Assembly (NCBI GenBank): GCA_016839365.1
Contig: JAEOUH010000061.1
Location: 1-19,691, forward strand
Source of the DNA: Candidatus Hermodarchaeota archaeon
GTDB lineage: Archaea > Asgardarchaeota > Hermodarchaeia > Hermodarchaeales > Hermodarchaeaceae
Direction of reading: 5' to 3'
DNA length: 19,691 nt
Below are positions 17,701-19,107 of this stretch, piece after piece. The notes beneath the pieces were generated by a model that did no database searches, had not been told where the DNA came from, and worked only from the letters and a program-made list of their open reading frames with translations. A program made the position numbers and the translations under genes. Within the stretch, counting starts at the first letter, position 1; every line of letters begins with the position of its first letter.

Positions 17701-19107
17701 ACCAGCCCCTTCAGTATTAGGTTCACCCGTGATAGGTAAGGCACCGCGCCGCATACCGATGGAAAGGGCTTGTGGCGTGGCGAATTTCATTGCTTCAAGG
17801 AGAAGGCAAGCAGCTCCTGTAGCGATTGCTGCTGAGGCAGCAGTGGTACTAGCCTGTGTGTAGTTCTCATTAATCGGAGAACCAAAAATCCCGCCTCCTA
17901 TGAACTCGATATCTTCCAAGTCAATGTCAATCGATATATTACCAATATCGGTTGGGAAGATCTTATACAAAGAAGAGGAGATGATGTCAACTCCAGGAGC
18001 AATGAGGTCCGGTTTAGTACGAAAGTCAAAGGTAGGGCCTCGGCTGCTGAAATCAGGGACTAGACCTTTCAGCGTATCATAAGCACCGACGGCAAGTGCC
18101 GCTAAGGATTCTCCTGGCGACATGATAGTCAGGTGGTTGGGTCCTTGATCACCAGCTGCTGTAATGACGAGAACTCCTTCCTCTGAGGCTCTCCACACTG
18201 CCTCTGAGAGCGGGTCACCTGGCATTCCTAAGATTGAGAAGGGCATTAGGATGATATCTGCGCCATTGGTCACACTCCATTCAATTCCTCGGATGATCCA
18301 AGAGGAAAACCCGCTACCATCGCCAAGAAGGACCTTTGCACTGATGAGTTGGGCTCCGGGTGCGATGCCAACATAGGTACCGTTTGAAGCCGCTCCAGTT
18401 CCTGCCACTAACCCAGCACAATAAGTACCATGGCCGTTTAAGTCAAAAGGGAAAGGATCTCCTTCGGTAAATGAGACTTGGGCAACTACTTTGGGATCAT
18501 CGGTAGTTTCATTATCATCCATATCATCAAGATCTGGGTGAGTGATATCAATGCCCGTATCCAAGATTGAAACAACAGTGTGTGATCCATTAAGTCCCAA
18601 ATCGTATAGGGGGTTTGCGCCAATGGTTTCTTTGGGATGAAGGTAACCATTCGGAGAAAGTGGATTAGATGAGAAATTAGTCGCTGATGTATCTAGATGA
18701 AACCCATGGTCTGTCCAAAGTTTTTTAATCTGTATTATGCCTGCGAGTGCTTCGAGCTCACCTATTCTTGTTCGTAGGGAAATCGCATGGATTAACCGAT
18801 GGTAGGTCAGAATTTGGGTTAAAGTCGTTTTTTGTAAGATAGCCCGTTTAGCCGATCTCCAATCAGTTCCTTCTGCTAAGCTAGCAATCACATTTACAGG
18901 AAGATTAGGATCTTCATCGGACGACATGAGTTCAATGAGTCCTTGTGACAGCTTGGAGTCTGAGTTCGGAGTATCAGAAGAAGGAATTAGAGAACCAACT
19001 GAAAGCTGATACGCAGAAAACGGCATAGCCATGACGAAGATGGAAAGTAGAAGGAGACATAGTAATGAAGTGCCATTGACTCTATTTTGCCGTTTCATGC
19101 GTTGCAC
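14716..19107 (-). CDS. Type I membrane S8 subtilase homologue, predicted catalytically inactive, with a GIFT/GldG-like domain and a cytoplasmic tail (Site-1-protease-like architecture), 1463 aa
   Basis: Signal peptide and I9-like prodomain. Asp183 (ILDTGID) and His226 (NGHGTYCAG) are present, but the oxyanion site is AAGD and the nucleophile motif is YTQASTTAASAAIATGAA. Followed by beta-rich and CARDB-like segments, 'VILFDSVHNQ...LIICDPEKGFTANE...NHTVLNQLL', a Pro-rich linker, a TM helix and a ~75-aa tail. Confidence 0.9.
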   Translation of the reverse strand: MQRMKRQNRVNGTSLLCLLLLSIFVMAMPFSAYQLSVGSLIPSSDTPNSDSKLSQGLIELMSSDEDPNLPVNVIASLAEGTDWRSAKRAILQKTTLTQILTYHRLIHAISLRTRIGELEALAGIIQIKKLWTDHGFHLDTSATNFSSNPLSPNGYLHPKETIGANPLYDLGLNGSHTVVSILDTGIDITHPDLDDMDDNETTDDPKVVAQVSFTEGDPFPFDLNGHGTYCAGLVAGTGAASNGTYVGIAPGAQLISAKVLLGDGSGFSSWIIRGIEWSVTNGADIILMPFSILGMPGDPLSEAVWRASEEGVLVITAAGDQGPNHLTIMSPGESLAALAVGAYDTLKGLVPDFSSRGPTFDFRTKPDLIAPGVDIISSSLYKIFPTDIGNISIDIDLEDIEFIGGGIFGSPINENYTQASTTAASAAIATGAACLLLEAMKFATPQALSIGMRRGALPITGEPNTEGAGLLNAMAAYQELNNLHDPFPTGFRTRSVGLGFPYYGILVSESSFENVTLLMSGYSTAIGALVTSSVTNMTLFHLLFGMFYLAVGNSSPIPFSFLNVEQELHWTGLPYGEYVRATGILAFEELLIIQRVESWQVATGPSANAFRISFFFVNIGLETVTDVRVYSLWNFNLFSGANDTSIQQGYFNSTSQLFHVHGDVLPVNETTRVEQFIGVNASIPFTDFQVGPYNEVSDQLQNETLTGATSYADDEGIGFGSQWRLGNLSAGASSLNVSMTLGFGRNYTALAHGINQTELATVAVPLTDLCMIQVDMARTGVTNSTYLTSVIILNIGDVGVDSIAAFFTNRSQPLGGAVFARYFQLGIFEPFRYQRLSVEWNPEVTEIYFAGWVVSPSIDFDLITLSIPQDRYPLDNLVYRDVFISSPPMMRMLVPTQLPYGPMTLQFPNDYALYNLTLHTTTNIQSLAVTIEPFINSSIDSPIDRNITQWENPPTISPELIYDVSIGTQFQMTIFIPTFLESGSYYGNLVLRAADGWELALPFVINVTYPQAVILFDSVHNQGIDFANLEDLDFSNLDLDELLTLFAELGDSLLTGYSRLREVFAASQLNLVDIPLITEINSSILQLFDGLIICDPEKGFTANETNAISEFIESGCKTIILVDHPDSSNHTVLNQLLLDQGIQVGGTITSYNTTELHPSTPFTTGILAISTIDGTLLTTTGISQVFAWVNGSAFGTYLNDTNKELFVLGCSAIFGNAYLLDLDNLRFVNQTVQYLFRKTVTLSIQITGGVNSSFYIGNDAGFIIDATNATGLGVEGLDMFVIFVYPNRTQSFFIAFEVKEGRYGSFLFANWTGLDETVDTIQTFSIIIFTTPGAYCSTSAFMHFYYLPPLEEPPPPQEPDFLMIMTIQIFLVTVITILIIGTYFMNQYRRKRQMRTPTLDEQIIRNIDNTLNTTQALIREMEWTLTDRRTDRIEKLRITSGEPANRLENMLKRLRELAKETGV

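Follow-up and report, generated by a model that had tools for sequence, protein, structure and literature searches.

A probable subtilase pseudoprotease with a GIFT domain, encoded between two ABC ATPase genes in Asgard archaea

The gene and its active site

We consider a gene on contig JAEOUH010000061.1 of a Candidatus Hermodarchaeota archaeon (assembly GCA_016839365.1). The window, which is the whole stretch of DNA that was analyzed, is 19,691 nucleotides long. The gene lies at 14716..19107 on the minus strand, as do all of its parts described below, and is an open reading frame of 1463 codons without interruption. Its product (P0001, 1463 amino acids) is predicted to be anchored in the membrane, with a subtilase (S8) fold in its N-terminal part and a GIFT domain in its C-terminal part. 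Two genes for ATP-binding cassette (ABC) ATPases flank it at 6 and 5 bases. A protein search over 5.8 billion clusters found 76 clusters of orthologues, and the window's own protein is not counted among them. Both the catalytic serine and the oxyanion asparagine of subtilases are missing from this protein, and the question is what that means for its role.

Homology to the S8 superfamily is clear. The Pfam profile for Peptidase_S8 (PF00082) matches residues 174-464 nearly end to end (profile positions 1-283 of 288, E value 6.8e-44), with a score of 150.7 bits against a cut-off of 21.8. A first-pass annotation of this DNA had proposed a subtilase with a disabled active site, and recomputing the codons reproduces every residue and coordinate that it named. 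Two members of the catalytic triad are retained. Asp183 (GAT, 18559..18561) is Asp in 67 of the 76 orthologues and His226 (CAT, 18430..18432) is His in 57 of them. The third is gone. The usual GTSMA.P motif reads TTAASAA, with Ala423 (GCT, 17839..17841) at the position of the nucleophile and T421, T422, A424 and S425 on its flanks. The oxyanion-hole motif AAGN has become AAGD, with Asp320 (GAT, 18148..18150) in place of the Asn.

The placing of Ala423 at the nucleophile is borne out by sequence alignment and by the structure model. HMMER aligns TTAASAA opposite GTAMATP of Tk-SP (PDB entry 3afg), which is an engineered Ser-to-Ala mutant, so A423 falls on the nucleophile. When 43 active S8 proteins, each with the full Asp-His-Asn-Ser set, are aligned with the protein by MAFFT, A423 falls in their invariant Ser column and D320 in their invariant Asn column. 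In an AlphaFold2 model the equivalent of the helix that bears the nucleophile of subtilisin starts at residue 422, which fits T422 being Thr220 and A423 being Ser221. The Gly, Met and Pro of the motif, also listed as lost in the first-pass annotation, are replaced as G421T, M424A and P427A. Beyond these, HGTH has become HGTY (H229Y), the substrate-strand motif MSLG has become MPFS (S289P, L290F), and there is a 23-residue insert between APG372 and Y416. The motifs FSSRGPT..KPDLIAPG and EGAGLLN are still present, as had been reported. These comparisons show that the frame encodes an S8-fold protein that has lost the catalytic Ser and the oxyanion Asn. It has neither the Asp-His-Ser triad with GTSxxxP nor the equivalent of Asn155 that define an active subtilase. 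It cannot be assigned to the sedolisins (S53) either. It shares their Asp at the oxyanion column, but it lacks a Ser nucleophile and has a His where they have a Glu.

Conservation and origin of the loss

The orthologues are 25-75% identical to the window's protein and mostly about 1400-1660 amino acids long, with a few partial ones. Those with named sources come from Asgard lineages (Thor-, Hermod-, Hod-, Hel- and Lokiarchaeota, Ranarchaeia and 'Promethearchaeota'). None of the 76 has GTSMA and none has AAGN. The oxyanion column holds Asp in 75 and Glu in one, where all 43 active relatives have Asn. The nucleophile column holds Ala in 56, Thr in 8, Gly in 6, Ser in 5 and Val in one, where all 43 active relatives have Ser. 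Other changes are diagnostic of the clade: HGTH to HGTY or HGTF, S289P, L290F, G421T, M424A and P427A. Several subclades have also lost the triad His, which is replaced by Arg, Ser, Pro, Glu, Lys or Met, and several have lost the triad Asp, which is replaced by Ser, Gly or Ala. The combination of Asp and His with Thr at the nucleophile column is found in 8 orthologues, and with Ser in 3.

The ratio of nonsynonymous to synonymous substitution rates (dN/dS) was calculated against a 90%-identical orthologue in a sister species (L016). It is 0.119 for the whole gene and 0.082 for the S8 domain, and it reaches its minimum of 0.061 in the C-terminal block 1301-1463. Constraint is strongest on the S8 domain and the C-terminal tail and weakest on the prodomain, which evolves faster than any other part.

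A lost active site in a single genome could be trivial. The gene could be a recent pseudogene, the result of a sequencing or assembly error, or simply misaligned by chance. The frame is intact over 4.4 kb, however, at least 8 independent diagnostic substitutions are common to the 76 orthologue clusters, the S8 domain is under strong constraint, and the structure model is confident. We found nothing that speaks for this explanation, and there is practically no chance that it is right. The first-pass annotation had judged a sequencing error unlikely and had proposed that a non-proteolytic fold is being maintained; the orthologue columns and a dN/dS far below 1 favor both views. These data show an Asgard-wide family that is under strong purifying selection and is neither decaying nor an error. 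An S8 fold that has substituted catalytic residues and is maintained by selection is what one expects of an S8 pseudoprotease.

A FastTree phylogeny of the S8 domain places the dead proteins in one clade with SH-like support of 0.989. Their sister group is made up of active S8 proteins that carry GIFT, DUF4350 or ABC_transp_aux domains, and the parent node has support of 0.999. Proteins with Ser or Thr at the nucleophile column all nest inside Ala clades, and in two cases the His is lost as well. The simplest history that explains the monophyly of the dead proteins, their active GIFT-bearing sister group and the nested Ser and Thr would be one ancient loss of catalysis in a protein where S8 and GIFT were already fused. 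The C-terminal 964 residues match just 65 clusters among 1.84 billion representatives, which implies that the family is small and restricted.

The prodomain and the subtilase fold

The head of the protein (residues 1-540) was modeled with AlphaFold2 at a mean predicted local distance difference test (pLDDT) score of 86.9. It begins with a hydrophobic segment at residues 10-35 (19003..19080) that is a signal peptide or a signal anchor, with a Kyte-Doolittle window of 2.26 and a modeled helix at 9-39. A database copy of the protein (P0003, 1438 amino acids) begins 25 residues later and would lose this segment, which the orthologues keep. Residues ~69-140 (18688..18903) form an I9-type prodomain with the order beta-alpha-beta-beta-alpha-beta and pLDDT above 90, and in the model it docks onto the S8 domain. 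The subtilase fold itself spans residues 152-482 (17662..18654) and matches subtilisins at Z scores of 41-49 with a root-mean-square deviation (rmsd) of 1.2-2.6 A.

Residues 69-482 superpose as a single rigid body on pro-subtilisins that have not autoprocessed, at Z 42-49 (3afg at 48.9, 3whi at 47.3, and Ser-to-Ala mutants of pro-Tk-subtilisin at 42-43). On this model the head is predicted to resemble a permanent zymogen with its prodomain docked, which supports the earlier suggestion that it is still capped.

It could be argued that the protein is still a protease that uses a nearby hydroxyl as its nucleophile, either Thr422, Thr421 or Ser425. Asp183 and His226 are kept here, the His is kept in most orthologues, and Thr422 is nearly invariant (72 of 76). 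However, active subtilases keep this Thr just as strictly, as Thr220, and it is not their nucleophile. Among the 76 orthologues, 23 have Ala in place of Ser425 and 16 have Ser or Gly in place of Thr421. By its helix register, the model has residue 423 and not 425 at the Ser-equivalent helix start. The losses extend to HGTH, the oxyanion Asn, the SLG strand, and the Met and Pro of GTSMA.P, and entire subclades do without the His or the Asp. In the Clostridioides difficile pseudoproteases CspC and CspA, activity did not return even when the triad was restored (PMC7200643). The first-pass annotation had named a neighboring Ser or Thr in the nucleophile position as one result that would overturn it; column conservation and helix register make that unlikely, and we consider a substitute nucleophile highly improbable.

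A different objection is that the site does new chemistry. Asp183, His226 and Asp320 could have been kept for metal-dependent or water-activating hydrolysis, for instance. Asp320 hardly varies while the nucleophile column drifts between Ala, Thr, Gly, Ser and Val, and this implies that the cleft is selected for something besides serine catalysis. S53 enzymes have an Asp in the oxyanion hole, so a new enzyme of this kind would partly recall them. However, S53 enzymes still depend on a Ser nucleophile and on a Glu where subtilases have the His, and this protein has neither. His226 and Asp183 are each replaced in subclades that otherwise look intact, which is more in keeping with a binding site than with a fixed catalytic center. 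The docked prodomain of the model would also block the cleft. We think a new enzyme is improbable. The invariant Asp320 beside a variable nucleophile column suggests instead that the old active-site cleft may have been kept as a putative binding site in a protein that no longer cuts.

The stalk, the GIFT domain and the membrane anchor

The rest of the protein was modeled as residues 500-1463 (mean pLDDT 86.2). Residues 500-764 (16816..17610) form a beta super-sandwich that resembles the N-domains of GH15 glucoamylase and glucodextranase and of GH94 phosphorylases (Z 19-21 over ~230 residues). Residues 765-1010 (16078..16815) are further beta-sandwich domains, all beta with pLDDT ~90. They are followed by a GIFT domain of the GldG/IFT52/OST48/S1P type at residues 1012-1238 (15394..16074). 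A structure search aligns this domain with the N-domain of IFT52 at Z 24.5 (rmsd 1.9 A over 194 residues) and with OST48 at Z about 20. The last beta-sandwich of 765-1010 together with the GIFT domain aligns with the P-like and GIFT part of S1P, with residues 889-1237 matching S1P 480-872 at Z 19.6. A single-sequence search of the PDB with the C-terminal 964 residues finds IFT52 only marginally (E value 0.47), so it is the structure search that establishes the GIFT domain. The IFT52_GIFT, ABC_transp_aux and DUF4350 families are recorded for many of the orthologues.

A membrane-proximal beta-sandwich follows at residues 1239-1349 (15061..15393), based on the secondary structure of the model with pLDDT around 90. 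Next is a C-terminal transmembrane helix at 1359-1387 (14947..15033; Kyte-Doolittle 2.75), which is modeled as one long helix. The protein ends with a conserved helical tail at 1388-1463 (14719..14946) that is predicted to be cytosolic. It lies within the block of lowest dN/dS, and its motifs recur in the family consensus.

Only the two segments at 10-35 and 1359-1387 are strongly hydrophobic. There are 37 N-X-S/T sequons, three times the 12.6 +/- 3.2 found in shuffled sequences, and 35 of the 37 are in the predicted ectodomain. A glycosylated surface protein would fit both the hydrophobic ends and the enrichment of sequons, and this is probably what the gene encodes.

The operon and the neighboring genes

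The second ABC ATPase gene (ATPase 2, 13724..14710, minus strand) lies 5 bases downstream and matches Pfam ABC_tran at an E value of 2.6e-25. The first (ATPase 1, 19114..19689, minus strand) is cut by the end of the contig, leaving the C-terminal 191 amino acids, which also match ABC_tran. This arrangement was compared across 15 orthologous loci from several Asgard families, 4 of them from the window's genus and 11 from other families. Both ATPase genes directly flank the orthologue in 10 of the 15. They are both just upstream on the other strand in 2 more, and in one locus a single ATPase gene adjoins while the other is about 4 kb off.

An ABC-2 permease of 373-397 amino acids (ABC2_membrane_3) is found upstream of ATPase 1 in L016 and L027. 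The operon order is then ABC-2 permease, ATPase 1, pseudo-subtilase gene, ATPase 2. Full-length ATPase 1 has 554-564 amino acids (L016:12191-13855 on the minus strand, L027:6101-7795 on the plus strand). It has an N-terminal extension of ~240 amino acids, not found in ATPase 2, that weakly matches the C-terminal sugar-binding domain of the archaeal regulator TrmB (E value 3.8e-8 in L027). The genome's own permease gene is near the start of another contig (G000:C46:1224-2342) and its product shares 95% identity with the sister-species permease. The window's contig ends at 19691, inside ATPase 1, and the two contigs probably abut.

Two other observations on these loci should be recorded. In L027, a distant orthologous locus at about 31% identity, the operon is directly followed by an open frame of more than 2249 amino acids (L027:13154-19900, plus strand) that the window's locus lacks. 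This frame matches beta-propellers and has 15 bacterial TSP3 calcium-binding repeats. Downstream of ATPase 2 the window has a small GTPase of the Ras/Rab family (13080-13604, minus strand; Pfam Ras E value 2.5e-50). We considered this GTPase as a core part of the system and rejected it, since it is syntenic only in the 4 loci of the window's genus and is absent from those of other families.

The window also encodes an active subtilase at 5950-10968 on the plus strand. It has 1672 amino acids with an intact GTSMAAP, a PPC domain and a C-terminal hydrophobic stretch. Its S8 profile match is spread over residues 196-710, which implies large insertions in the catalytic domain. The pseudo-subtilase could be a regulator of this enzyme, as CspC and CspA are for CspB, or a substrate that it processes in trans, with the ABC operon being incidental. 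The two genes are ~3.7 kb apart and syntenic in all four loci of the window's genus (L016-L019), and there is a precedent for a pseudoprotease that regulates its cognate protease (PMC7200643). However, the active subtilase is absent from all 11 loci of other Asgard families, and the ABC ATPases stay in 9 of these. It also diverges much faster: in loci where the pseudo-subtilase is still 72% and 65% identical, it has dropped to 44% and 36%. The two genes lie on opposite strands with several unrelated genes in between. A partnership of this kind has a slim chance at best. Processing in trans by this neighbor had been floated in the first-pass annotation; that part is weakly supported at best, and we rejected it as a core feature on the grounds that synteny is limited to four loci of one genus.

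The genome has a third S8 gene (G000:C5:16837-17775; L003:928-2790, plus strand) that encodes 620 amino acids. Its motifs DSGF, GHGTA, SGNT and GTSCSAP look intact. Part of it is rich in proline, and as no signal peptide is obvious it may be cytoplasmic.

Active S8-GIFT proteins of 1252-1272 amino acids, with GTSM..P, AAGN and a C-terminal zinc ribbon, are found in other Asgard families (L037:7255-13150, minus strand; L036:9513-13328, plus strand). The one in L037 adjoins an ABC ATPase gene and a gene for a 372-amino acid protein with a weak match to FtsX-like permeases. The one in L036 has a faint match to the fourth domain of MBTPS1 in Pfam. In one family, four loci with active S8-GIFT paralogues (L032-L035) had no ABC genes next to these. 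These four and L037 are too few to generalize from.

Proposed function

We argue that the most sensible reading of this protein is a pseudo-subtilase that would have no serine-protease activity. Autoprocessing needs the Ser, so the I9-type prodomain would stay covalently attached and docked, and the head would be a permanent zymogen-like module. The whole protein would then be a GldG-like extracytoplasmic accessory subunit of an ABC-2 transporter. Binding of a ligand or partner outside the cell, be it a peptide, a protein or a glycan, would fall to the dead S8 head and the beta-sandwich stalk. The transmembrane helix and the cytosolic tail would couple this binding module to the ATPases. A GIFT-type domain identified by structure, hydrophobic segments at both ends and adjacent genes for an ABC-2 permease and ATPase are what one expects of a GldG-like auxiliary protein (PF09822/GIFT). 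The conserved ABC-2 operon and this GIFT domain give the best hint of function, and the first-pass annotation made no use of them in its entry on this gene.

Several points weigh against this reading and must be considered together. Here the Pfam matches to IFT52_GIFT, ABC_transp_aux and DUF4350 are below the curated cut-offs (23.9 against 34.7 bits). Two of the 15 loci, L022 and L025 from one family, have no ABC gene beside the orthologue. One permease gene with two ATPase genes is an unusual stoichiometry. The docking of the prodomain in the model may just copy zymogen structures that the network has learnt. Residual or regained activity is conceivable in the 8 orthologues with Asp-His-Thr and the 3 with Asp-His-Ser, given their residues. 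The absence of proteolytic activity is deduced from sequence and a model, and on that basis we still hold it to be very likely for the window's protein. The role as an accessory subunit is a good deal less secure, and we favor it by a modest margin over its not being so. An ancient pseudoprotease with an attached prodomain that serves as a GldG-like ABC-2 accessory subunit, with a binding head and a coupling tail, is as a whole a likely account.

The 'S8 family serine peptidase' label that databases give to family members has a practical consequence. Metabolic reconstructions of Asgard archaea may count these proteins as extracellular proteases, which is very probably wrong. The family is a clean and deep case of a protease fold that was turned into a structural or binding module. 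Its active sister group can be identified and it has a recurrent partner in the ABC-2 transporter with two different ATPases, which makes the function of a dead protease testable.

Comparison with known systems

The closest solved S8 domain, prodomain included, is that of Tk-SP from Thermococcus kodakarensis (3afg; E value 1.2e-46, Z 48.9, 36% identity). Unlike the Asgard protein, Tk-SP is an active secreted protease that only lacks its Ser in the crystal form, and it has no match to a GIFT domain. We know of no link between Tk-SP and an ABC operon.

The eukaryotic protease S1P (also called MBTPS1 or SKI-1) has the same order of parts: prodomain, S8, P-like beta-sandwich, GIFT, transmembrane helix and cytosolic tail. 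The S8 domains align at Z 41.7, in addition to the alignment of the C-terminal part given above. The GIFT domain of S1P packs against the oxyanion loop and supports it (PMC11231238). Unlike the Asgard protein, S1P is an active protease with Asp-His-Ser and Asn338. The Asgard protein is longer by ~500 residues of beta-sandwich, and its gene lies in an ABC operon. Scores for the S8 domain are 283 bits for Tk-SP, 166 for subtilisin BPN' and 150 for S1P, so S1P is no nearer to this domain than bacterial subtilisins are. The domain order of the S1P family is present, and a specific kinship of the S8 domains and an active triad are not. The resemblance is one of layout, and it does not demonstrate membership of the family or common descent. 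As a likeness of layout, S8, beta-sandwich, GIFT and transmembrane helix as in S1P, together with the link of GIFT to OST48 and IFT52, is relevant to the origin of eukaryotic membrane-trafficking components.

A bolder scenario can be put forward. All Asgard S8-GIFT membrane proteins (the active P0091, P0104, P0081/82 and the 1252-1272-amino acid zinc-ribbon forms, plus the dead branch) could be true prokaryotic relatives of the S1P architecture. The dead branch could then be the outward-facing, ligand-gripping subunit of an as yet undescribed mechanotransducing ABC-2 machine on the Asgard cell surface, with the Asp320 cleft as its binding site and the tail coupling to two distinct ATPases. Taken jointly these claims are speculative, and we doubt that all of them hold.

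GldG of the GldA/GldF/GldG system, from Bacteroidota gliding, and the ABC_transp_aux (PF09822) and DUF4350 proteins are alike in a different way. They share the GIFT-type domain, hydrophobic anchors at both ends, a large extracytoplasmic body, and genes that occur with those for an ABC-2 permease and an ABC ATPase. GldG is not known to have a subtilase head, a prodomain or a 500-residue beta-sandwich stalk. Its system has one ATPase, whereas the Asgard operon has two, and the Pfam scores of the Asgard protein differ in being under the cut-offs of these families. Proteins like DUF4350 and GldG are predicted to be components of membrane complexes in archaea (PMC5898192).

For the loss of catalysis the best comparison is with CspC and CspA of C. 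difficile. These S8 pseudoproteases keep their prodomains uncleaved and serve as germinant sensors (PMC7200643). They share with the Asgard protein the subtilase fold, the substituted catalytic residues, a prodomain without autoprocessing (which we infer for the Asgard protein) and a selected role that is non-proteolytic. They differ in being soluble spore proteins of Firmicutes whose target is a cognate active protease. The Asgard protein, of 1463 amino acids, is membrane-anchored, includes beta-sandwich and GIFT domains and is encoded in an ABC-2 operon. Catalysis was lost independently in the Csp proteins and in the Asgard family. In literature searches we found no published description of the Asgard pseudo-subtilase/GIFT family. 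S8 pseudoproteases were already known from CspC and CspA, and what is new here is a pseudo-subtilase that is fused to a GIFT domain and encoded within an ABC-2 operon.

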